A stretch of 64,000 nucleotides of DNA from contig JBAYFL010000003.1 of assembly GCA_041667205.1 (NCBI GenBank), positions 126,325-190,324 on the forward strand, written 5' to 3'. The position numbers and the translations under genes are program-made. Position 1 is the stretch's first letter. The number at the start of each line of letters is the position of its first letter. Shown here one piece after another: positions 556 through 14,207 of this stretch. The notes under the pieces were generated by a model that saw nothing but the letters and a program-made list of their open reading frames with translations, was not told where the DNA came from and ran no database searches. The DNA is from Verrucomicrobiia bacterium. Lineage in GTDB: Bacteria > Verrucomicrobiota > Verrucomicrobiia > CAIQCK01.

Positions 556-1881
556 ATGTCCATGACACTCAAGGATTCATCCGTCATCACGCTCCTGCTT
601 CGCGCGTTTGCTCTCTTTCTCTGCACCTTCTCCAGCCTGCACGCCGCAGAGTTCCGCGCTGCCGCGGTCAAGGTGGACATCACGCCGTCCACGCCGCAGA
701 TGCTGCGCGGCTACAGTCCGCGCATGTCCACCAAGGTGCATGACCGGATTTATCACCGCATCGTCGCGCTCGACGACGGCACGACCTCGTTCGTCCTCAT
801 TTCCTCCGATCTCTGCTCGCTCTCGCCCGCCTATTGCGACCGCGTGACCGGCGATCTTGCCAGGAATCTCGGCCTGCCACCGGAAAACATCTGGTGGTCC
901 ATTACCCACACGCATTCATCGCCCTACGTCGGCCCGCCCGGCATTCCCGGCCTGCTCATGACCAACCGTTTCCAGTTTCGCATGGATGAAACCTACACGG
1001 CTCTTGTGGAGAAACGCCTTGTGAATGGCGTCCGGCAGGCCCGACAGAAGCTTGAGCCGGCCAAACTCGGCGTCGGCCGGGGTTACGCGGAGGCCAACAT
1101 CAACCGCCGCGCCCGCGACGCCGACGGTCAGGCGCGTCTCGGCATGAATCCCTCCGCGCCGGTGGATCGCCGCATCGGCCTGCTTCGCCTCGACAAGGCC
1201 GATGGCGTGCCTTTGGCCCTCATCGCCAATTACGCCATGCACGCCACCGTGTTAGGCGCCAGCAACACCGTTGTCAGTGCCGATGCGCCCGGTATCGTCG
1301 CCGAATACGTCGAGGAAAAGACCGGCGCCCCCATGCTCTATCTCAACGGCGCCGCCGGCAACATCGCTCCGATTTACAGCACACGCCCCCCAGCCGAGAT
1401 CAGGCTTCTCAATCAGTTCAAAGTCCTGCTGGGCGATCCCATCCTTGATGCCAACCGCCGCCTGCGCGCCACCTCCGCCGAGGTGAAACTGCGCGCCTCT
1501 CGCATCATTCTCGAAACCCCGAAACGCCCCGGCCTCAAGTGGTCGGACGAACTCAAGGACTACCTTCGCGTTTCCAAAGACGGCGTGGAAACCCTGCTCG
1601 TGCCGCTCCGTTTCCTGCGCGTCAACGACGACACCGTCATCTGGAGCGCGCCCATGGAGTTGTTCTGCGAAATCTCCAACGACATCCGCGACCGTTCGCC
1701 TTTTGCCAACACATTCTACGTCGGCTACACCAACGGCACCTTCGGTTACCTGCCGACCGAACAGGAGTTTCTCGCCGGTGGCTACGAACCCGCCACCTCT
1801 TTCTTCACCGCCTCCGCCGCCGGCCATCTCAGCGCGGCCGTCAACCGCCACCTGCGCGAAATCCACGCCGCCAAGGATTGA
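556..1881 (+). CDS. Neutral/alkaline ceramidase-like hydrolase (N-terminal catalytic domain), secreted
   Basis: Signal peptide. N-terminal 'AAVKVDITP..RGY..HDRIYHRIVALDDG..VLISSDL' matches the neutral ceramidase N-domain signature. Confidence 0.55.
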   Translation: MSMTLKDSSVITLLLRAFALFLCTFSSLHAAEFRAAAVKVDITPSTPQMLRGYSPRMSTKVHDRIYHRIVALDDGTTSFVLISSDLCSLSPAYCDRVTGDLARNLGLPPENIWWSITHTHSSPYVGPPGIPGLLMTNRFQFRMDETYTALVEKRLVNGVRQARQKLEPAKLGVGRGYAEANINRRARDADGQARLGMNPSAPVDRRIGLLRLDKADGVPLALIANYAMHATVLGASNTVVSADAPGIVAEYVEEKTGAPMLYLNGAAGNIAPIYSTRPPAEIRLLNQFKVLLGDPILDANRRLRATSAEVKLRASRIILETPKRPGLKWSDELKDYLRVSKDGVETLLVPLRFLRVNDDTVIWSAPMELFCEISNDIRDRSPFANTFYVGYTNGTFGYLPTEQEFLAGGYEPATSFFTASAAGHLSAAVNRHLREIHAAKD

Positions 1882-1895
1882 AGCGCCTACACCTT

Positions 1896-3770
1896 ATGCC
1901 CGCCATTACCCGCCTCCTCATGGCCAGCCTATGGCTGGCTGCGTTTTCCCTCGCCAGCGCCGAAGTCGTGCGCGTGGAGATCACCCAACGTTCCGACGTG
2001 GGCGCCACGGGTTACGAGCAGATTGTCGGCCGGCTGCACTTCGAGATTGACCCGGCGCATCCGCGCAACCGCATCATCGCCGATGCCGATCTGGCACCGA
2101 CAAACGCGGCGGGGCGCGTGGCGTTCTCCTCCGATCTCCGCATCCTGAAACCCAAGGAGGCCGGGCGCAGCAACGGCGCGGCTTGGGTGGAGATACCCAA
2201 CCGGGGCGGCAAGAGCGGCCTGAACAATTTCATCACCAAGCACGGCTTTACGGTCATGCAAGTCGGCTGGGAGTTCGACGTGCCAGCACAAGGCGACAAG
2301 ATGCGCATCAAGGTGCCCGCGGCGCGGGAAAAGGACGGCACACCGATTCGCGGCGTGGTGCGCGCCGCGTTCACGCCAGACAAACGTTTGGAGCAGGTCA
2401 CCGTGAGCGATCTGGCGGATTATCCGCCCGTGGATGCCGCCGGACCGGACAGCCGGCTGATTGTGCGGACGGCCACGGCGTTTCCCGTCGGCAAGGAACT
2501 GCCGCGCAGCCAATGGCGGCTGGAAGGCCAGCGCGTGAAGCTGGAGAGCGGTTTCGAGCCGGGCAAGACGTATGAGATTTCCTACCTCGCGGAGAACCCG
2601 CCGGTGGCGGGCATGGGCCTCGCGGCGATCCGCGATGCGGTGGCGTGGCTGAAGCACGACGCCGGCTCGCCGGCCCCGGTGCGCCACGCCTACGCGTTTG
2701 GCTCCTCGCAATGCGGCCGGCTCCTGCGCGAGTTTGTCTATCTCGGTTTCAACACCGACGAGCAGGGCCGGCAGGCGCTGGATGGCGTGATGGCGAACGT
2801 CGCCGGCGCGGGCCGGCTGGACATCAACCGCCGCTGGTCGGCGCCGCGCAAGGTTGCCGCCTACGAGACCGCATCCTATCCCTTCACTGACACCGCGCAG
2901 AAGGATCCCGTCACTGGGATCAAGGAAGGTGTGCAGGACAACCCGCGCGTGACACACAGGCCGAAGGTTTTCTACATGAACACGGCGGCGGAATACTGGG
3001 GCGCGGGCCGCGTGGCGGGCTTATCGCACACCAGCCCCGACGGCAAGCGCGACGTTTCGCTGCCGGACAACGTGCGGGCCTATTTCTTTGCCGGCACGCA
3101 GCACGGGGCGGCATCATTCCCGCCCACGGCTCCGGCGAAGGACGGTCAACTCGCGAACCCTGTCAACGCCAGCCCCGTCGTCACCGCCCTGCGCCTCGCG
3201 ATGCATCGCTGGGTCGCCGAAGGCACACTGCCGCCGCCGAGCGCCTATCCCAAGCTCAGCGACGGCACGCTGGTGCCTGTGGCGAAAGTTCGCTTCCCAG
3301 CCCTGCCGGGAATCTCATCGCCCCGGAGCGCGACGGGCGGGCCACGCCTGCGAAATCCGAATTGGCCGCCCGGCGCGGGCGCCGGCGCGATGCTGCCGCT
3401 GCTGGTGCCGCAGGTGGATGCGGATGGCAACGACCTCGCGGGCATCCAGATGCCGGATGTCAGCGTGCCTCTGGGCACCTGCACCGGCTGGGTGTTTCGT
3501 CCCGCCTCGATGGGCGCGCCGCACGAGATGATGCCGTTGCGCGGATTCTGGCTTCCGTTCGCCGCCACGCGCGAGCAACGGGAGCAGGCCGGCGACCCGC
3601 GTCCGTCGCTCAGCGAGCGTTACGCTTCCAAGGAAGCCTGGCTGGCGCGCGTGAGCGACGCCTTGCAGCAACTCATCAAACAAGGCTACCTCCAAGCCGA
3701 AGACATCGAACCCTTGCAGAAGCAGGCAGCCGTCCGCTGGGATTGGGTCACGAAACGAAAGCCCTTGTGA
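1896..3770 (+). CDS. Secreted hypothetical protein (624 aa)
   Basis: The long ORF 1539..3770 overlaps the upstream gene. The internal Met at 1896 begins a classic signal peptide, MPAITRLLMASLWLAAFSLASA. No recognisable catalytic motif. Confidence 0.5.
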   Translation: MPAITRLLMASLWLAAFSLASAEVVRVEITQRSDVGATGYEQIVGRLHFEIDPAHPRNRIIADADLAPTNAAGRVAFSSDLRILKPKEAGRSNGAAWVEIPNRGGKSGLNNFITKHGFTVMQVGWEFDVPAQGDKMRIKVPAAREKDGTPIRGVVRAAFTPDKRLEQVTVSDLADYPPVDAAGPDSRLIVRTATAFPVGKELPRSQWRLEGQRVKLESGFEPGKTYEISYLAENPPVAGMGLAAIRDAVAWLKHDAGSPAPVRHAYAFGSSQCGRLLREFVYLGFNTDEQGRQALDGVMANVAGAGRLDINRRWSAPRKVAAYETASYPFTDTAQKDPVTGIKEGVQDNPRVTHRPKVFYMNTAAEYWGAGRVAGLSHTSPDGKRDVSLPDNVRAYFFAGTQHGAASFPPTAPAKDGQLANPVNASPVVTALRLAMHRWVAEGTLPPPSAYPKLSDGTLVPVAKVRFPALPGISSPRSATGGPRLRNPNWPPGAGAGAMLPLLVPQVDADGNDLAGIQMPDVSVPLGTCTGWVFRPASMGAPHEMMPLRGFWLPFAATREQREQAGDPRPSLSERYASKEAWLARVSDALQQLIKQGYLQAEDIEPLQKQAAVRWDWVTKRKPL

Positions 3771-4071
3771 TCCGCCAGACTGCGACTTGAAGAAACAGAC
3801 AAGGCCCGCAAGGCGACGTCAGCGCCGCCGATCTCAGCTTCGCCATCGGCGGCACCAGCGCCAACAGCAACACCGTTCAACCCCTCGACGAGACCGCCGA
3901 CCAAGCCGCCATCATCGCGAAGATCAACGAATTGATTCAGGCGCTGAGGAGATGACGTCGCAACAACAGGGGTTTCGACTCGACCGTTCTCATCTAATCG
4001 GTTAAGGACTACGCGGAGCAAGTGACTAGTGCTCGTGTAGCTAACAGGAAGCTTCACCAAAGGAAGCAACA

Positions 4072-5031
4072 ATGCACCCATTTGAAAATATTCTCAGCGT
4101 CGCGGCGGAAGACATCGAGTTCGAATTGCGCGGGGGTGGGGCCGTGTCTTGGACAGATTTTCTGCTGAATCCCCGACGACTGCGGGGGAGCGATTTCTTG
4201 ATGCGGTGGTCGCAAGGGGTTTGGAGCGAAGAGCGTTTGATTCAGGCTGTGAACGAAACCGGCCGCTATGTCGCCTTCCCATATGGTCCCAGTGGGGTCG
4301 CGCCAGATAACGATGTGCGCGCGTTCGAGCTGTATTTCGAACGACTGGAGAAGGCTGGGCTTAGCAAGATCAAGCGTCCGGACATTCTGATCTTTCGCAA
4401 GAGCGATGAAGCCAGAGTGCAGCGCACGGTGAATGAACTTGGCGGGATCACAGAACTGCCCTTCACTTCTGAAGACGATCAGCGCATGAAGGAGTTGCTG
4501 TCACGCGCTGTCTTGGCGGTGGAGTGTGAGAACAGCCTTTGGCGTGCAAAGCAAATGCCCGCTTTCGGCGTGGAACTCAAGCCGCAGAAACGTTTGGGCG
4601 GCAAGCTTGGCATGACCAAGACTGCCGTTTTGCCGACGGTTATTCTGAAAGAGGAAGATCGTGCTCCTCTGCACGAATGGCAGAAAAAGTGGAAGCCGCC
4701 CATTCACATCTGGCATGTGTTCTACGACTTGGCGTTTGGATTGGCTTTTGACAAGGCCGAGGATCTCATCCGAAGCGGGCAGATCGCGCCGACCGAACAA
4801 GTGTTTCAAGCTCCGGGTGGCGTAACGACGAAGAAAGTCATCTACAAAATCTATTATCACCACGCCTACCCTCTCGGTAATTCGGAGCAGGAACCGACCT
4901 TGGTTGCCGACCACATCACGGATAAAAATGGCCACATCCTGCCCTACGTGAAGTTCCAAGGTGGCCGCTTGCGGCTCGGTCCGGCCGCGCTGACAACACT
5001 CAATGAAGCCGCGCGTGAGGCGAGGGCGTAA
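4072..5031 (+). CDS. Putative type II restriction endonuclease (partner of the downstream MTase); family not assignable
   Basis: 319-aa ORF with an AAAGGAAG RBS, 5 nt upstream of the MTase gene, in a lower-GC (about 54%) islet. No signal peptide. Function is inferred from context only. Confidence 0.4.
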   Translation: MHPFENILSVAAEDIEFELRGGGAVSWTDFLLNPRRLRGSDFLMRWSQGVWSEERLIQAVNETGRYVAFPYGPSGVAPDNDVRAFELYFERLEKAGLSKIKRPDILIFRKSDEARVQRTVNELGGITELPFTSEDDQRMKELLSRAVLAVECENSLWRAKQMPAFGVELKPQKRLGGKLGMTKTAVLPTVILKEEDRAPLHEWQKKWKPPIHIWHVFYDLAFGLAFDKAEDLIRSGQIAPTEQVFQAPGGVTTKKVIYKIYYHHAYPLGNSEQEPTLVADHITDKNGHILPYVKFQGGRLRLGPAALTTLNEAAREARA

Positions 5032-5036
5032 GAGGT

Positions 5037-6668
5037 ATGATCTTGCCGTTCAACAAACTGCCAACTGCGGGGCCGGCGCGAGAAGCACTTCGCCAGAAGG
5101 GGCAGTTTTGGACGCCGGACTGGGTTGCCCAAGGAATGGTCGCGTATGTCGTGGACGGAGACTGCGACGAGGTTTTTGATCCAGCCGTTGGGGCCGGCGC
5201 GTTTTTCCGGGCCGCGAAGCAAATCGCGAAAGAGACGGGGCGCTCGATCAGATTTCACGGAACAGAAATTGACCCGGCGGCGTTGGAGCAAGCCGTTCAC
5301 AATGAACTGTCTGCGGCCGACCTTGCCGACGTGCAGGTTCGCGATTTTGTGCTGAACCCTCCGTCCGGTCCTTTGCCAGCCATCGTCGCCAATCCGCCCT
5401 ACATCCGACACCACCGCCTTGGCTGCGAGGTCAAAGCCAAGTTGCGCACTTTCGCCGTGAAGCTTATTGGCAGGCCGCTCGACGGCCGGGCGGGCATCCA
5501 TGTTTATTTTCTGCTTCGCGCGCTGCAATTGCTGAAACGCGAGGGACGGCTCGCTTTCATTATGTCGGCCGACACGTGCGAGGGTGTCTTTGCTCCAACG
5601 CTTTGGAACTGGATCACGCGGAATTATTGCCTCGATGCGATCCTGACGTTTGCCCCGGAAGCATCGCCATTTCCTGGTGTGGATACCAACGCCATCGTAT
5701 TCATGATTCGCAACGCGAAGCCCGCGTCTCATTTTTTGTGGGCGAAGTGCAACGCCGCGCGATGCGATGGATTCAGGCAATGGGCTTTGGCGGGGTTCAA
5801 AGGCCGCTCCAGTGAAGTCCTGACCATCTACCGCCGGTCAGTGGCAGAGGGACTCGCAACAGGTTTTTCCAGGGAGCCGGGAACGATTGACGCCAACGCG
5901 CCAAGACTTGGAGACTTCGCTAAGGTGCTTCGCGGCATTGCCACGGGTTTCAATGAGTTCTTCTTCCTGACGCGAAGCCAAGCTGCATCGCTGCGTATTC
6001 CCAATGAGTTTTTGATTCCTGCTGTCGGTCGGACACGCGATGTGGCGGGAGAGGAAATCACCAGCAAGACATTGGACGCTCTTGATGCGGCGGGGCGGCC
6101 AACGCTTCTGTTTTCCCCCGATGGCCGACCGCTTGATGCGTTTCCCAAAGCTGTTCGAGAATACTTGAGACGCGGGGAAGAAATGGGGCTGCCCAAGCGG
6201 CCTCTGATCGCCTCGCGCCAGCCTTGGTATAAAATGGAAACGCGCCAGCCGCCTCCGTTCCTGTTCGCCTATTTGGGGCGGCGAAACGCGCGCTTCATCA
6301 GGAACCAAGCGGGGATACTTCCCCTGACGGGCTTCTTGTGTGTCTATCCGCGCAGCAATGAGCCAGAGCTTGTTGACAGACTCGGGGAAGCCTTGCGCCA
6401 TCCGGAAACCATCGCAAACCTACGACTGGTAGGCAAGAGCTATGGACAGGGGTGCATAAAAGTCGAGCCGCGTGCGCTGGAGCGGCTGCCTCTGGCATCG
6501 GCCGTGACAATGGAGTCGGAGATCGAAACCTTCAGCTACGCGTTGCCCTTGGAATTCGTCGGCTCGGAGACACCGGAACCTGCGCTGCTGGTTCGCGAGC
6601 GACATGGGAAGCGCTATGTCGCACGACAAGACTCTGGAGGCAGACACAAGAAGCGAGCGGCGAATTAG
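5037..6668 (+). CDS. Gamma-class N6-adenine DNA methyltransferase (M.TaqI/Eco57I-like)
   Basis: Motif order matches M.TaqI: 'QFWTPDWV' (FxTP), 'VFDPAVGAGAFF' (AdoMet motif I), 'GTEIDPAAL', 'VANPPY' (motif IV NPPY). A C-terminal approximately 290-aa target-recognition region follows. Confidence 0.8.
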   Translation: MILPFNKLPTAGPAREALRQKGQFWTPDWVAQGMVAYVVDGDCDEVFDPAVGAGAFFRAAKQIAKETGRSIRFHGTEIDPAALEQAVHNELSAADLADVQVRDFVLNPPSGPLPAIVANPPYIRHHRLGCEVKAKLRTFAVKLIGRPLDGRAGIHVYFLLRALQLLKREGRLAFIMSADTCEGVFAPTLWNWITRNYCLDAILTFAPEASPFPGVDTNAIVFMIRNAKPASHFLWAKCNAARCDGFRQWALAGFKGRSSEVLTIYRRSVAEGLATGFSREPGTIDANAPRLGDFAKVLRGIATGFNEFFFLTRSQAASLRIPNEFLIPAVGRTRDVAGEEITSKTLDALDAAGRPTLLFSPDGRPLDAFPKAVREYLRRGEEMGLPKRPLIASRQPWYKMETRQPPPFLFAYLGRRNARFIRNQAGILPLTGFLCVYPRSNEPELVDRLGEALRHPETIANLRLVGKSYGQGCIKVEPRALERLPLASAVTMESEIETFSYALPLEFVGSETPEPALLVRERHGKRYVARQDSGGRHKKRAAN

Positions 6669-6772
6669 TCGTCGGGACGGGTTCCTGATTCTTGACGGAT
6701 TTATTGCCGGCCACCGGCTGGTCACGTAGATTTTGCGGAGGTCAGTGATGTCAGCAGTTATCCTCACGCCCA

Positions 6773-6812
6773 CATCCACACGGACGCGATTGTTTATCCA
6801 TTACCACGGGCC
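6773..6812 (+). promoter_or_regulatory. Conserved upstream motif CATCCACACGGACGCGATTnTTnTCCATTnACC (copy 1), upstream of the DUF4838 gene
   Basis: Near-identical 35-40 bp element recurs at 9126..9167 in front of the next secreted hydrolase gene. A TTACCA-N18-TAGAGT promoter-like arrangement lies inside it. Confidence 0.3.
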
Positions 6813-6850
6813 TGTCGAATCTGGTAGAGTCTGCGACTCAAAGACGAGCC

Positions 6851-9094
6851 ATGAAAACATCCTTCCTTCCGTTGTTCTGTCTCCTGTTCTTGCTGGCCGA
6901 TTTGCACTCCGCCGAACTGGCGAGGGACGGCGCGACCCGCTGGAAGATCGTCCTGCCTGACGAAGCGACGATGGTCGAGAAGACGGCCGCGCGTGAATTG
7001 GCCGAGCATTTGAAGCTCGTCACCGGAGCCGAGTTCCTGACGATTGCCGAAAAGGACGCGCCCGCTGGCGGGAAGTCGTTGATCTTCGTTGGCAACACGA
7101 CGAAGGCGCCGAAGAAGAACTACAAGTTCGACGAAATCCTGATCAAAATGGACCGCGGGAACCCGATCCTGGCGGGGCATCCGAGGCGAGGCTGCCTGTA
7201 TGCGGTCTATTCGTTCCTGCAGGATGTCGTCGGCGTTCGCTGGTGGACGCCCGAAGACACGTTCATCCCGAAGAAGCCACGGCTGCTCGTCGCGGACAGT
7301 CTGCATGTTTCCTACGCGCCCCAGATGGTCTCGCGGGAGATGTATCATCGGGACGCCCAGCCGGGTGTTTTCTCCGCGCGCATGAAGGGCAACGGCGGCA
7401 TCGCCCCGGAATACGGCGGCGCGGTGCGGATCATCAACTTCGTCCACTCGTTCTACAAGTATCTGCCGCCCGAAAAGTATTTCGACGCGCATCCGGACTG
7501 GTATTCGGAGATCAACGGCAAACGCAAACACGAGCACGCGCAGCTTTGCCTGACCAACGAGGCGATGACGCGGGAGTTGATCAAGAGCGTCCTGGAGACG
7601 CTGCGGAAGAATCCCGACGCGAAGATGATTGACGTCTCGCAGAACGACTGGCACGGCTGCTGCACCTGCGCCAAGTGCAAGGCGATAGACGATGCGGAGG
7701 GAAGCCACGCAGGCACGCTCGTGTTGATGCTCAACAAAGTCGCCGAGGCGGTCGAGAAGGAGTTTCCGGACGTGCTGGTCGAATCGCTGGCGTATCAATA
7801 CACCCGCAAGCCGCCCAAGACTCTCAAGCCGCGCGACAACGTTCTGATCCGGCTTTGCACGATTGAGTGTTCCTACATCCAGCCGCTCAACGGTCCGCAG
7901 AACCGGAAGTTCGCCGCGGACATGGAAGGCTGGAGCAAGCTGGCCAAGCACCTGTTCATCTGGGATTACACGACCAACTACAACGACTACCTGGGGCCGC
8001 ATCCCAACCTGCGCGTGCTCGCCCCGAACGTCCGCTATTTCATCAAGCACGGCGCCATCGGCCTGTTTGAAGAGGGAGAAGGCGACGACTTCTGCGAACT
8101 GAAAAACTGGCTGCTCCTGCGCGTGATGTGGGAACCGCGCCTCGACGCCAACAAGCTGATCGCCGAGTTCGTGCGCGGCTACTACGGCGAAGCGGTCGCG
8201 CCGCTCATCAAGCGGTATTGGGACATCCTGATCGCGAAGGCGGAGAAGGAGAAGATTTATCTCGGCTGCTTCGGCATGAACTCGGCGAAGTGGATTGATC
8301 TGGCGACACTCAACCAGGTCACCGAAGTCATGAACAAGGCCGTCGAGACAGCGACGAGAGTTTGCGGCCCCGATTCCGCGGAACTGCGCCGGCTGCGGAA
8401 GTCCAAGATGGGCGTGGATCTCGTCTGGCTGAGCCGATACTACCCGCTCCGCTGCGAGGCGCGCGAAAAGAAGCTGCCGTTCCTCGGCCCGAAAGACCCG
8501 CTCAAGGCGGCGGAGGAGTTCGCGCAGCTCTGCAAACGGTTCAAGACGAAGGCGGCGATGATTTCGCAGGAGAAGAACCTCGGCGTGTATCTGGAAGGCC
8601 TGCGGGCGGGATTCCTCGCGCAGAGCAATCCACCCGACATGTGCAAGGGTCTGCCGGAAGACAGTTGGCTCGTCTTCGACGCCCTGTCGTTCCGCAACTT
8701 CCGCGATGCCGCGACGGTGATCAGCGATCCCCAAGCGTGGAACGGCAAGAGCGTCCGCATGGGGACGAAGGTGGACTGGAACACCAGCTACACCCCGCCG
8801 GTTCGCGGGAAGTATCGCATCCTCGCTTCCCTGCGTTGCGAGGGAACCATCAAGAAAGGCAAACTCGGTTCGTGGGGCGTCTATGACGCTCAGGGCAAGA
8901 AATCGCTCAAGACCATGGTTCTCAACGCGAAGGATTTCGCGACCGAAGACGGCTCGTTCGACAAGAAGTTCCGGTGGATTGATCTGGGCACTGTTGATTT
9001 CGTTCCCGGCGCATACTTCTGGTTCGCCCACGGACACAGCCCCGAACTGGACGCTATCTTTGTTGACCGTGTCGTGCTCATCGAAGCGAAGTGA
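6851..9094 (+). CDS. DUF4838-family secreted protein (putative glycoside hydrolase-like)
   Basis: 747 aa with a signal peptide. Architecture and composition are typical of DUF4838 proteins of Bacteroidota/PVC. The equally long antisense ORF 6794..9037 is a GC-shadow ORF. Confidence 0.55.
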   Translation: MKTSFLPLFCLLFLLADLHSAELARDGATRWKIVLPDEATMVEKTAARELAEHLKLVTGAEFLTIAEKDAPAGGKSLIFVGNTTKAPKKNYKFDEILIKMDRGNPILAGHPRRGCLYAVYSFLQDVVGVRWWTPEDTFIPKKPRLLVADSLHVSYAPQMVSREMYHRDAQPGVFSARMKGNGGIAPEYGGAVRIINFVHSFYKYLPPEKYFDAHPDWYSEINGKRKHEHAQLCLTNEAMTRELIKSVLETLRKNPDAKMIDVSQNDWHGCCTCAKCKAIDDAEGSHAGTLVLMLNKVAEAVEKEFPDVLVESLAYQYTRKPPKTLKPRDNVLIRLCTIECSYIQPLNGPQNRKFAADMEGWSKLAKHLFIWDYTTNYNDYLGPHPNLRVLAPNVRYFIKHGAIGLFEEGEGDDFCELKNWLLLRVMWEPRLDANKLIAEFVRGYYGEAVAPLIKRYWDILIAKAEKEKIYLGCFGMNSAKWIDLATLNQVTEVMNKAVETATRVCGPDSAELRRLRKSKMGVDLVWLSRYYPLRCEAREKKLPFLGPKDPLKAAEEFAQLCKRFKTKAAMISQEKNLGVYLEGLRAGFLAQSNPPDMCKGLPEDSWLVFDALSFRNFRDAATVISDPQAWNGKSVRMGTKVDWNTSYTPPVRGKYRILASLRCEGTIKKGKLGSWGVYDAQGKKSLKTMVLNAKDFATEDGSFDKKFRWIDLGTVDFVPGAYFWFAHGHSPELDAIFVDRVVLIEAK

Positions 9095-10961: not shown

Positions 10962-11621
10962 ATGATTCGTTCTTATCTTAAAGTAGCCGTAACGACGCTC
11001 ATACTCGCGACAAGCGCGATGATCTATGCGCAGGACGCGTTACCCAACGATTCAGCATGGTCGGCAGGCGTTGACCTCATGCGCTTGATTGATCCGGCGA
11101 AAGATCGATTAGAGGGCCAGTGGAGTAAACAGGAAGCAAAGTTAATTACTGCCGGAGACTCCGCGCGTTCCAAATTGCAGATTCCCTTCCATCCGCCAAA
11201 GGAATATGATTTTCGCACGGTTTTCACTCGTGCAAGCAACACCGCTTTGGTCATACAAATCTTCTCCCAGAGTGAGCATGTCGGAATGTGGCTCATGGAG
11301 AATGGTTATTTGGGTTTTGCAATGGTGAACGGCCAGTCGGCAAACAGTAATCCGACCACGGTTGCGAATCCCGGTGGTAAAGAAACTAGTGGACGCCACA
11401 CTTCAATTCTTCAGGTCCGTCGGAGGAGCATAAAGGCCTATTTGGACGGCAAGCTTGTCAATCAGATGAAAACTGATTACAGCAACCTGAGTTTACATTC
11501 CGCATGGGAAATTCCAAATCATCGCTGTCTCGGATTGGCAACCGTTGGTCCTGCCACATTTGAGAAAATTGATCTGATTGAAGTGATGGGCAAAGGATCC
11601 GCAACTACCAGACGGAAATGA
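10962..11621 (+). CDS. Secreted LamG/jellyroll-fold protein, DUF1080-like (putative 3-keto-glycoside hydrolase family)
   Basis: AGGAGG RBS and a signal peptide. 'GQWSKQEAKLITAGDS..YDFRTVFT' pattern. Gene GC is about 48%, well below the flanks. Confidence 0.45.
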   Translation: MIRSYLKVAVTTLILATSAMIYAQDALPNDSAWSAGVDLMRLIDPAKDRLEGQWSKQEAKLITAGDSARSKLQIPFHPPKEYDFRTVFTRASNTALVIQIFSQSEHVGMWLMENGYLGFAMVNGQSANSNPTTVANPGGKETSGRHTSILQVRRRSIKAYLDGKLVNQMKTDYSNLSLHSAWEIPNHRCLGLATVGPATFEKIDLIEVMGKGSATTRRK

Positions 11622-11685
11622 CGACGATAAGGACACCCTTGCTCTCAGCACCACAGCACAAAAGGTAGGGACGACGCGGCGACAA

Positions 11686-13068
11686 TTACAGCGTCCAACC
11701 TTCGCGATAGGTGCGCTTGACGTAGCTGTTGGCTTGCTTGTCGTTGGTCACTTCCATCTTCTCGCCGTCCCAGAAGAGGCGGCGGTTGGGGTAACGCACG
11801 GCGAGATTGCCCATCAGCACCATCTCGGAGAGCGGGCCGGAGAAGTCGAAGCTCGAGCACGCGGGCTTGCCGTCCTTGCAGGCGCGAATCCAATCCTTCT
11901 CGTGCCCCTCCTTGCCGCCGGGAACGCGCTCCAGCGTCTTCGCCGGGCGCTTGAACGCCTTCATCTTCGCGTCAGGAATGAGGCGCGGACTCTCGCCAAA
12001 GCAGCCGCAGATGAGTTTGCCCTTGTCGCCGATGAACAACACGCCGCCGTCGGAGTTGCCCATTTGGCGGCCCTCCTCCAACTCGACGGGCCGTGGGGGC
12101 ATCATGCCGCCGTCCCACCACGTCAGGTTCACCGCCGGCATGGAGTCGCGTTTCGGGAACGCATAGCGCACGATGGTGGAGCGCGGGAAGTTTTCGTTCT
12201 TCGGCTCGACGACTTTCCAGAGGTCGCGCCAGTAGGTAGAGATGCAGCCCTCGACGCTCGTGGGATACTTCAGTTTCATGGACCAGAAGACGCAGTCGAG
12301 GATGTGGCAGCCGAGGTCGCCGAGCGAGCCGGTGCCAAAATCGCACCACGCGCGCCAGTTGCCGGGATGGTAGGCATGATTGAACGGGCGGAACGGCGCG
12401 GGGCCGATCCATTTGTCCCAATCCATGCCCTGCGGCACAGGCTCCGCCTCGGGCCGGCCGACCTCGATGCCTTGCGGCCAGACGGGGCGGTTGGTCCAGG
12501 CGTGAATCTCGCGCACGTTGCCAATGGCGCCGGCCCAGAGCCATTCGCAAACCATCCGCGCGCCCTCGCCGGAGCGGCCCTGGTTGCCCATCTGCGTGAT
12601 GACTTTGTATTTGCGGGCGGCTTCGGTCATGGCGCGCACTTCGTTGACCGAATGCGCCAGCGGCTTCTGGACGTAAACGTGTTTGCCGGCCTTCATGCAG
12701 GCCATCGCGACAACGGCGTGGTTGTGGTCAGGCGTGGCGATGACCACCGCCTCGATGTCCTTCTGCTTCTCCAGCATCTCGTGGAAGTCCATATAGACCT
12801 TCGCGCCGGGATGCGCCTTGAAGGTTTTGGCGGCGTAGTTGGGATCAATGTCGCAGAGCGCGACAATGTTCTCCGTCTCGGAGCAACGCTTGATGTTGTT
12901 GCCGCCCATGCCGCCGACGCCGACGCCGGCGATGTTGAGCTTGCGGCTCGGCGGAGTCTGGCCGTTGAGGCCGAGCACGTAGCCCGGCAGGACGTGGAAC
13001 GCCGCCGTGGCAACGGCCGCGCGGCGGAGGAAGCTGCGACGAGAGAAAGTGGAATCAGGTTGGTTCAT
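11686..13068 (-). CDS. Gfo/Idh/MocA-family NAD(P)-dependent oxidoreductase with Tat signal (glycoside 3-dehydrogenase-like)
   Basis: Internal start MNQPD with a GGAGAA RBS. 'SRRSFLRRAAVATAAF' twin-arginine leader, then a 'NIAGVGVGGMGG' Rossmann motif. Confidence 0.8.
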   Translation of the reverse strand: MNQPDSTFSRRSFLRRAAVATAAFHVLPGYVLGLNGQTPPSRKLNIAGVGVGGMGGNNIKRCSETENIVALCDIDPNYAAKTFKAHPGAKVYMDFHEMLEKQKDIEAVVIATPDHNHAVVAMACMKAGKHVYVQKPLAHSVNEVRAMTEAARKYKVITQMGNQGRSGEGARMVCEWLWAGAIGNVREIHAWTNRPVWPQGIEVGRPEAEPVPQGMDWDKWIGPAPFRPFNHAYHPGNWRAWCDFGTGSLGDLGCHILDCVFWSMKLKYPTSVEGCISTYWRDLWKVVEPKNENFPRSTIVRYAFPKRDSMPAVNLTWWDGGMMPPRPVELEEGRQMGNSDGGVLFIGDKGKLICGCFGESPRLIPDAKMKAFKRPAKTLERVPGGKEGHEKDWIRACKDGKPACSSFDFSGPLSEMVLMGNLAVRYPNRRLFWDGEKMEVTNDKQANSYVKRTYREGWTL

Positions 13069-13310
13069 GGTTGAGTTCTCCTTTTCGATGGCGGCCAGTG
13101 TAATCTCAGCGGCAGTTGCGCAACATAACTTTTTCGAAGCCTTGACCGTAAGGGTTTCCATCAGATTGAGTATTGGCACAACGCGACATCGTTTATGCCA
13201 AAGGCGACCGCGACAGCCGTCAACAAATCGCCTGACAAGCGCCCTTGCATCCGCCTATAGTGCGCCTCGCTGATAACAACACTGGGTTTCGCCTACGAAA
13301 GGACGCCATC

Positions 13311-14207
13311 ATGAACCGACTCCTGCTCATTGCAGCGTTTTCCATCGCCGCAACCATTGTCAGCGCCGCTACGCCGATCGTCACCCATCAACAAACCCGC
13401 AAGATCGGCGCGACCAAGGCCACCCAATGCCAGTCCCTCTCCCACTTCTGCCTCAACACCGCCGGCGACATCGTTGCTTGTGACGAAGGCGACGACGTCG
13501 TGCGTGTCATCACAACCCGCGACCAGCTCAAGGCCACATGGAAGATGCCGTTTTCCCCGCACGCCATCGCTGCACGCGCGGATGGCAGTTACGTGGTGAC
13601 CAGTTCCGCCACCGTGGCACTTCTCGGCCCCGACGGCAAAATCCTCAAGACTGCGGAGCTGCCCGGCGCCGGCAAGTATTCCCGCTCGCCCGGCGCCGCC
13701 GTCATCAAGGACGACATTTTCGTCTGCTCGCGCGCCGGCACATCGTTCGCGGTCTTCCGGTTCAACAAGCAACTGGGCGACTGCAAGGAGATCGTCCGCG
13801 GCCTGCGCGGCTGTTGCGGCTGCCAGGACATCGGCACGGACGGCAAGGACCTCTACGTTGTCGAGAACGCCCGCCATCACGTGATGCGCTTCGACCGTGA
13901 CGGAAACAAGCTCGGCGAGTTCGGCAAACGCGACCCCGACTCGCTCGAAGGCTACGGCGGCTGTTGCGAGCCGAAGAACATCTGCTTTGGTCCCGCCGGC
14001 GCCATCTACACCTCCGAGTCCAACAACTTCCGCGTCAAGCGCTGGAGCGCCGACGGCAAGTGCACGCTGGTGGCGATGGTGAAGTCGCAATACGTCGGCT
14101 GCACGCAGGTGGCCATTGCCACCAACAAGGATGGCAGCGAGCTGTATTTCCTGGACAAAGTTGGCTGCGTCATCCACGTGCTGACCGGTCCGGCCTTGGG
14201 GAAATAG
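13311..14207 (+). CDS. Secreted NHL-repeat-like beta-propeller protein, rich in Cys pairs
   Basis: AAAGGA RBS and signal peptide MNRLLLIAAFSIAATIVSA. NHL-like 'DLYVVENARHHVMRFDRDG'. Unusual CC pairs 'GCCGCQD' and 'GGCCEPKN'. Confidence 0.5.
   Translation: MNRLLLIAAFSIAATIVSAATPIVTHQQTRKIGATKATQCQSLSHFCLNTAGDIVACDEGDDVVRVITTRDQLKATWKMPFSPHAIAARADGSYVVTSSATVALLGPDGKILKTAELPGAGKYSRSPGAAVIKDDIFVCSRAGTSFAVFRFNKQLGDCKEIVRGLRGCCGCQDIGTDGKDLYVVENARHHVMRFDRDGNKLGEFGKRDPDSLEGYGGCCEPKNICFGPAGAIYTSESNNFRVKRWSADGKCTLVAMVKSQYVGCTQVAIATNKDGSELYFLDKVGCVIHVLTGPALGK

Follow-up and report, generated by a model that had tools for sequence, protein, structure and literature searches.

The 64,000-nucleotide (nt) stretch of a Verrucomicrobiia bacterium analysed here (contig JBAYFL010000003.1; the whole stretch is called the window) carries at positions 4072–6668 a two-gene cassette that is an ordinary kind of type II restriction-modification (R-M) system, a well-supported assignment. 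The best explanation of the observations, to which a probability of roughly 0.8 is given on comparative sequence analysis, is that the cassette would be a working type II R-M system for the site RTCGAY, composed of an AccI-family restriction endonuclease (REase) and a gamma-class DNA methyltransferase (MTase), foreign in origin and placed at a variable spot of the genome. In such a system, the MTase would mark host DNA, and the AccI-family endonuclease would cut unmarked incoming DNA. The reading is carried by the identities of the two genes, their linkage, purifying selection on both, the avoidance of RTCGAY, and the polymorphism of the locus among related genomes. The two open reading frames (ORFs), both on the + strand and separated by 5 nt, are as follows (aa, amino acids).

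4072–5031, + strand: REase gene (gene 1), AccI-family (PF09545) type II restriction endonuclease, 319 aa, with candidate catalytic residues E53, D104, E151 and E153 (and K193)
5037–6668, + strand: MTase gene (gene 2), gamma-class N6-adenine DNA methyltransferase, 543 aa, whose C-terminal target-recognition domain is M.Eco57I_C-like

The endonuclease and methyltransferase genes

Judged by its motifs and database matches, gene 2 encodes an N6-adenine DNA methyltransferase of the gamma class with N6-methyladenine (m6A) as its predicted product. The motifs stand in the gamma order, with FWTP at aa 24–27, VFDPAVGAGAFF at aa 46–57 (FDPAVGAGAFF at aa 47–57), and VANPPY at aa 117–122 (NPPY at aa 119–122); the Pfam families N6_Mtase (9.3e-13) and Eco57I (9.8e-9) are both matched past their cut-offs, and PADLOC MTase_II matches the protein over its full length (2e-45). 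A region resembling M_Eco57I_C (PF22837) lies at aa 291–498, where it is below the cut-off in this protein and is listed for all close homologs; the homologs of the MTase number more than 2,584. The best sequence matches in the PDB are M.TaqI (E 1e-6) and M.BseCI (1e-4), which align over the catalytic domain, with NPPY in register with M.TaqI. An earlier note on this DNA, made from the letters alone, had called gene 2 an M.TaqI-like gamma N6-adenine MTase, and the motif order, Pfam, PADLOC, and the M.TaqI match all bear it out. M.TaqI makes TCGm6A, and the site of M.BseCI is ATCGAT. The protein shares with these two enzymes the order xxTP, S-adenosylmethionine-binding loop, NPPY, and then a C-terminal recognition domain, and the sites of both contain the TCGA core of RTCGAY. 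However, only the N-terminal ~170 aa of the MTase align with them, the recognition domain is M.Eco57I_C-like, M.TaqI has 421 aa compared with 543 aa here, and a degenerate hexamer is predicted as the site.

Gene 1, which the earlier note took for the cognate REase and left without a family, is an AccI-family PD-(D/E)XK endonuclease as far as profile match and predicted fold can tell, and its linkage to the MTase agrees with the cognate role. It scores 44.7 bits against Pfam RE_AccI (PF09545), for which the curated gathering cut-off is 22 (E 1.2e-11). More than 2,390 homologs at 65–95% identity are known under the NCBI name 'AccI family restriction endonuclease'; their hosts include Chloroflexi, Acidobacteria, Clostridia, Nitrospira, Deltaproteobacteria, Sumerlaeota, and others. 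The predicted fold is PD-(D/E)XK, with D212 and Hjc as the best structural neighbours, and the residues E53, D104, and E151-x-E153, carried by the predicted elements alpha1, beta2, and beta3, are invariant in the family and all retained. NCBIfam gave no family matching gene 1, and a PDB sequence search with gene 1 gave no match even at E 10. Gene 1 is like the AccI family in exceeding the PF09545 cut-off and in being encoded apart from the MTase in a type II system of two genes, whereas it differs in its size of 319 aa against a 366-position model. In addition, the active site of the BamHI type is E...D...ExE within PD-(D/E)XK, with glutamate where most family members have lysine. The invariant residues of gene 1 recall this arrangement, glutamate again standing in the lysine place, although gene 1 has neither detectable sequence similarity nor top-ranked structural similarity to BamHI.

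The linkage of the two genes was surveyed in 80 metagenomic loci found by conserved REase peptides, 74 of which have room downstream of the REase. An MTase homolog lies directly downstream of the REase on the same strand in 73/74 of these loci, in hosts of 32–67% GC. The pair is also found in unrelated contexts, tight between housekeeping genes, for instance at an hsp70/hsp20 locus and at an L31/RF-1 locus (DUF1385-prfA). Compared with the cassette of L001, which is 95–97% identical (L-numbers are loci from related genomes and metagenomes; the related genomes were sought with the flanking abh gene as anchor), the REase has a ratio of nonsynonymous to synonymous substitution rates (dN/dS) of 0.105 and the MTase one of 0.076. 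Because of the linkage, the unrelated contexts, and the low dN/dS, the cassette is read as an intact, selectively maintained type II (IIP-like) R-M operon with the REase first, and not as an orphan MTase beside an unrelated gene. The earlier note had spoken of an accessory R-M module, which agrees with an intact AccI-family REase and gamma MTase pair under purifying selection; it had also raised an orphan MTase next to a non-nuclease gene 1, and what was found is linkage in 73/74 loci, the RE_AccI match, and a predicted nuclease fold. The sole exception to the linkage is L153 (4995–7809), where an AccI-family REase is followed by two other genes, one for a 289-aa DUF6996/DUF6997 protein and one for a beta-class N6_N4 MTase; RTCGAY is still scarce on the L153 contig, with 2 observed versus 9.8 expected.

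Recognition site and alternative readings

The site was sought through word avoidance, as observed/expected counts under an order-2 Markov model, in carriers (68 non-redundant cassette loci from diverse hosts; 469 kb, GC 32–67%) and in controls (75 cassette-free loci; 1.17 Mb). RTCGAY stands at 78/430 = 0.18 in carriers and 1830/1942 = 0.94 in controls, and at 4/88 = 0.05 in the 64-kb window; the carrier flanks alone give 0.20, the two MTase-identity classes give 0.17 and 0.20, and loci with zero RTCGAY make up 19/52 of the carriers and 0/74 of the controls. All three component words fall at 0.13–0.21 in carriers; ATCGAC/GTCGAT stands at 0.19 there and is enriched in controls (1.32), and other NTCGAN words do not differ between carriers and controls. 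Of 1,702 hexamers counted in the window, none is more depleted than ATCGAC/GTCGAT (0 observed, 44 expected); GTCGAC is observed once versus 17–24 expected, and ATCGAT 3 times versus 20. The AccI-only words (GTAGAC, GTCTAC, GTATAC) are not depleted in carriers (130/137 = 0.95). Since RTCGAY is depleted in carriers relative to controls and the AccI-only words are not, the recognition site is most likely RTCGAY (ATCGAT, ATCGAC/GTCGAT, GTCGAC), not the GTMKAC of AccI. An analysis of avoidance in the window only was tried and set aside as not discriminating, since sister genomes without the cassette at the locus look alike; the pooled carriers and controls were used instead.

Adenine methylation is implied by the MTase because it is an NPPY gamma-class enzyme, and by analogy with M.TaqI the modified base would be the adenine within TCGA (RTCGm6AY). 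As an R-M specificity, RTCGAY is already established from systems of Bifidobacterium breve, which include M.Bbr28III and produce RTm5CGAY through cytosine-5 MTases (PMC5829577; PMC12592239; bioRxiv 10.1101/2024.07.15.603628). The recognition word is the same in both cases; the difference is that those systems methylate cytosine-5, whereas the NPPY gamma-type MTase of the cassette would mark adenine.

Several observations weigh against a working RTCGAY system of foreign origin and are taken together here. The RE_AccI alignment is limited to aa 39–113 of the REase, equal to profile positions 35–109 (75/366), and the Foldseek E-values are weak, the best being 3.9e-3. The candidate active site is ExE, not the canonical (D/E)xK, and the residue-level catalytic role is that of a candidate; a promoter scan found no + strand sigma-70-like consensus upstream of the REase gene. 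L008 and L009 have no cassette at the locus, yet RTCGAY is scarce in them (2/29 and 2/27), and within this clade avoidance is thus untied to presence at this site; in L009 it is explained by a related MTase on another contig, L168, while the avoidance in L008 is without explanation. The RTCGAY assignment comes from avoidance only, a type of evidence that fixes neither the cleavage position nor the methylated base, and the strong avoidance of GTAC, CTCGAG, and CAGCTG indicates that other systems shape the word usage of the window. Finally, the 17-nt direct repeat at the junctions of the cassette (listed below) was rejected as stand-alone evidence, as 147/4,256 60-nt windows score as well against the left junction.

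Three other readings were compared with these data. The AccI prototype cuts at GT^MKAC, and an AccI isoschizomer recognising GTMKAC would suit the Pfam and NCBI family assignment and the GTMKAC count of the window (4 observed versus ~32–35 expected). The deficit comes mostly from GTCGAC, however, and GTAGAC/GTCTAC, with 3 versus 9–14 expected, rank only 291st of 1,702 hexamers; in carriers, the AccI-only words stay at 0.95 while the non-AccI words ATCGAT and ATCGAC are at ~0.2, and the likeness to the AccI model extends over only 75 residues. GTMKAC specificity was rejected on the pooled word counts, which as site avoidance are indirect evidence; the isoschizomer is left with hardly any probability, and the gene 1 group looks like a distinct, very large subfamily with a specificity other than that of AccI. 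A pair that does not work as an R-M system, with gene 1 an inactive or decayed nuclease and gene 2 an orphan or regulatory MTase, would fit the non-canonical ExE motif, the empty promoter scan, and the REase of L153 that has no adjoining gamma MTase. It is very unlikely, as gene 1 keeps every family-invariant residue and the predicted PD-(D/E)XK fold, its dN/dS is low, and the pair is linked almost throughout. When host DNA avoids a palindrome, restriction pressure is the established interpretation; the five-fold avoidance found here is what restriction would be expected to leave, and methylation alone is not expected to cause it.

The remaining alternative accepts the avoidance as real and ascribes it to another cause, or to a true site that is a subset or superset of RTCGAY, such as a longer word containing it. 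It is favoured by the correlative nature of avoidance, by L008 and L009, by the partial depletion of controls themselves (GTCGAC 0.48, ATCGAT 0.65), and by the ~78 RTCGAY sites left in the pooled carrier loci. Against it, the 68 pooled loci have only the cassette in common across 32–67% GC, the non-palindromic half-combination ATCGAC/GTCGAT moves from 1.32 in controls to 0.19 in carriers, the three component words are depleted alike while the other NTCGAN words match controls, and the L009 genome holds a 96%-identical MTase elsewhere that accounts for L009. This alternative is therefore given a small share of the probability, and RTCGAY is kept as the most likely site.

Other words are also avoided in the window. 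GTAC has 0 occurrences where ~93 are expected, L008 and L009 each have 0 versus ~33, the more distant relatives L011–L013 have 7–14, and L017/L018 have normal counts; CTCGAG is observed 3 times versus 19–38 expected in the window, and CAGCTG once versus 15–17. This depletion implies further R-M systems on the genome, of RsaI-, XhoI-, and PvuII-like specificities.

The locus, its junctions and its history

The cassette lies in the intergenic space between two secreted-hydrolase genes, and the remaining features are listed below in order of position.

1869–3770, + strand: left flank, gene for a secreted Abhydrolase_10-family protein (abh), outside the cassette; Pfam PF20091, E 5.8e-35
3777–3793, no strand: left copy of an imperfect direct repeat, AGACTGCGACTTGAAGA, which duplicates the empty-site spacer (repeat search; 3500–3794 aligns with L009 11590–11884)
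3791–3952, + strand: small-ORF relic ending ...AKINELIQALRR*, with no start codon, outside the R-M function; internal stop in L001, L002, L003 and L010
3888–4071, + strand: leader upstream of the REase gene, 184 nt, only in cassette-bearing relatives (present in L001/L002, absent from L008, L009 and L168)
6669–6734, + strand: 3' flank travelling with the MTase gene (93% identity to L168 over window 5055–6734)
6735–6827, no strand: right non-coding segment upstream of the DUF4838 gene, shared with L008, absent from the empty-site L009
6828–6844, no strand: right copy of the imperfect direct repeat, AGTCTGCGACTCAAAGA (repeat search; 6831–7098 aligns with L009 11870–12137)
6851–9094, + strand: right flank, gene for a secreted DUF4838 protein, outside the cassette; Pfam PF16126, E 1.4e-98

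The N-termini of both flanking proteins are signal-peptide-like, and abh orthologs in L001, L008, and L009 have 91–92% aa identity. The earlier note had described two ORFs 5 nt apart between secreted-protein genes, with which the coordinates, the gap, and the Pfam matches of the flanks agree, and non-coding junctions of about 300 and 180 bp, which measure 301 nt (3771–4071) and 182 nt (6669–6850). Its figure of about 54% GC over 4072–6668 does not hold: the value is 57.7% (REase 55.7%, MTase 58.8%) against a window mean of 61.3%, only the 9th percentile among same-sized windows (standard deviation 2.2%), and several other parts of the window are lower. GC content was dropped as a sign of foreignness, as 57.7% is within the normal spread of the window, and the GC content at third codon positions (GC3) was used instead. 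The REase (0.655) and the MTase (0.650) have the two lowest GC3 values, the other ORFs with GC3 above that of first positions (GC1) lying at 0.71–0.91; the lower GC claimed for the cassette is thus real at third codon positions, and the overall drop was overstated. A stronger GC dip, and a better compositional outlier than the R-M cassette, is found at 10962–11800 (0.47–0.51 in 400-nt windows), where it coincides with a 219-aa ORF (10962–11621) that has a signal-peptide-like start.

The promoter of the REase gene is presumed to lie within the 3888–4071 leader. Terminator-like matches at the cassette are not clearly above shuffle expectation, and Rfam gave no match over 3500–7100 at E up to 1. 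Genes for an integrase, a transposase, a tRNA, or a C-protein are all absent from the insert, and there is no small helix-turn-helix (HTH) controller ORF of the C-protein type in 3771–6850; the L168 variant does carry an HTH_3 gene.

Relative to L009 (assembly GCA_026397915.1), an empty site in which a 29-nt spacer separates the abh stop from the DUF4838 start, the insert is window 3795–6830 and holds only the REase, the MTase, and the small-ORF relic. L009 11870–11884 aligns to both junctions. The junction repeat is 17 nt with 14/17 matching, or 20–23 nt with a gap in the alignments to the L009 spacer; the spacer scores 24 against the left junction, which 0/2000 shuffles reach, and 2/2000 shuffles reach the score against the right junction. 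Furuta, Abe and Kobayashi (2010) reported R-M units that are inserted with target duplication, or by allelic substitution, without mobility genes, using a duplication criterion of 30 bp (PMC2853133). The locus resembles such insertions in having R and M in a 3-kb insert (<20 kb) with no integrase or transposase and with GC below that of the genome, in its flanking direct repeats that align to a single empty-site copy, and in that another genome has different cargo at this spot (substitution); it differs in that its repeat, 17 nt or ~20–23 nt gapped, is below the 30-bp criterion and its copies have diverged.

The start-less protein-like frame that the earlier note saw at the left junction does exist (3791–3952), as a relic with an internal stop in the sister copies and with no Pfam match for its peptide. 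Small ORFs or relics with the C-terminal motif (K/A)(L/I)(N/D)ELIxAxRR* (KLNELIxAxRR) occur in the window at 3791–3952 and also in L009 and L008: L009 has intact tandem ORFs at 1101–1265(-) and 1319–1603(-), of 54 and 94 aa, and the L008 members are at 12612–12713 and 13221–13391. Window 3815–3887 is 81% identical to L008 13233–13305. On the right side, window 6681–7099 aligns with L008 14848–15266 at 89%. Within the right segment, a non-coding element at 6749–6817 recurs at 80–87% identity over 39–66 nt between other genes of related genomes (L009 5882–5946, L008 17290–17337, L011 15844–15883, L012 13892–13931, L013 15924–15961); its 3' part (6799–6824) occurs only once within the window. The element has no Rfam match and may be a shared promoter or regulatory motif. 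In L001, at ~4890 (window 6757–6790), ~30 nt of the right junction are missing compared with the window and L008, which marks the right junction as decaying or variable.

L001/L010 and L002/L003 carry this cassette and share its junctions, at 92.7% nt identity over 3.6 kb. In addition to the empty site of L009, L008 has at the same spot a HicA toxin gene and then a GH10 gene. The HicA gene of L008 (minus strand, 11909–12202; Pfam E 1.8e-17) is bracketed, within 11632–12650, by direct copies of a 185-bp segment from the abh 3' end, which is the textbook arrangement of insertion with long target duplication, with a toxin gene in place of an R-M system. The assembly of L009 carries the MTase on L168 (JAPLTX010000017.1), at 96% aa and 93% nt identity; the homology begins 18 nt into the ORF and stops 66 nt past the stop codon. 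In this region (L168 6603–9697), an HTH_3 controller-like gene and a 289-aa REase-like ORF lie upstream of the MTase in divergent orientation. The ORF product is a distant homolog of gene 1, with 29% identity over 196 aa (E 1e-13); its PD, ExE, and KEED positions align, and it has no match in Pfam. Beyond these two genes lies a 26-aa relic of the C-terminus of an AccI-type REase, and in L168 the REase module appears to have been replaced while the MTase stayed unchanged. The 289-aa ORF beside the REase of L153 was considered as a relative of the 289-aa ORF of L168 and found to be unrelated (blastp E 0.5).

The GC3 values, the phyletic spread, and the unrelated contexts elsewhere support a foreign origin of the cassette that lies further back in time. 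Horizontal acquisition, as claimed in the earlier note, is in keeping with the low GC3, the homologs in many phyla, and the empty site and alternative cargo in sister genomes. No transfer vector was identified: relatives of gene 1 were found neither in IMG/VR viral contigs (by patterns) nor in GenBank phages, and a plasmid search with gene 1 gave a single distant match, at 23% identity, on a haloarchaeal megaplasmid. The cassette was not acquired recently, and the system predates the split of the genomes of the window, L001, L008, and L009, because cassette and flanks show matching divergence and the whole clade avoids the predicted site; the synonymous divergence (dS) between the window and L168 MTases is 0.21, and the flanking genes of the same two genomes give 0.20–0.26. 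On this timing, the cassette would have been in the lineage before the split and then been lost, replaced, or re-partnered in the sister genomes.

It is about evenly balanced whether the L009 empty site is a secondary deletion, in which case the common ancestor of the four had the cassette between abh and DUF4838, L009 deleted or moved it, and L008 replaced it. The equal dS of the MTase and the flanking genes speaks for this course, as do the avoidance of RTCGAY in all four genomes, the 26-aa REase relic in L168, and the 54 nt at window 6681–6734, which lie 3' of the MTase in the window and L168 and survive in L008 beside DUF4838 without the MTase. On the other side, the L009 spacer looks intact, and flanking repeats are the expected trace of insertion with target duplication. 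The polarity of insertion or deletion cannot be rooted because no outgroup shows abh-DUF4838 adjacency, L011–L013 having other genes at that position.

Meaning for the family and the clade

R-M turnover in one Verrucomicrobia clade can be followed at this locus in a small space: the same spot holds an empty site, the cassette, or a HicA/GH10 substitution. Turnover is also seen elsewhere in one sister genome, where L168 has a controller gene and a swapped REase beside the same MTase. Short metagenomic contigs were enough for the pooled-carrier avoidance test to work cleanly, and it is reusable for predicting specificity without a methylome. RTCGAY provides a testable specificity for a widespread, mostly uncultured subfamily now labelled only 'AccI family', a name that would mislead site prediction for this REase subfamily. 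Tentatively, and with more doubt than confidence, it is proposed that the subfamily, with at least 2,400 members, might act on RTCGAY across many phyla through RTCGm6AY and an AccI-like nuclease, and that L168 might be a natural replacement of the REase module under constant methylation specificity. If so, this adenine-methylating RTCGAY system would differ from the RTCGAY systems found in the literature, which are 5-methylcytosine systems from Bifidobacterium only, and the cassette could provide a new prototype REase for RTCGAY.

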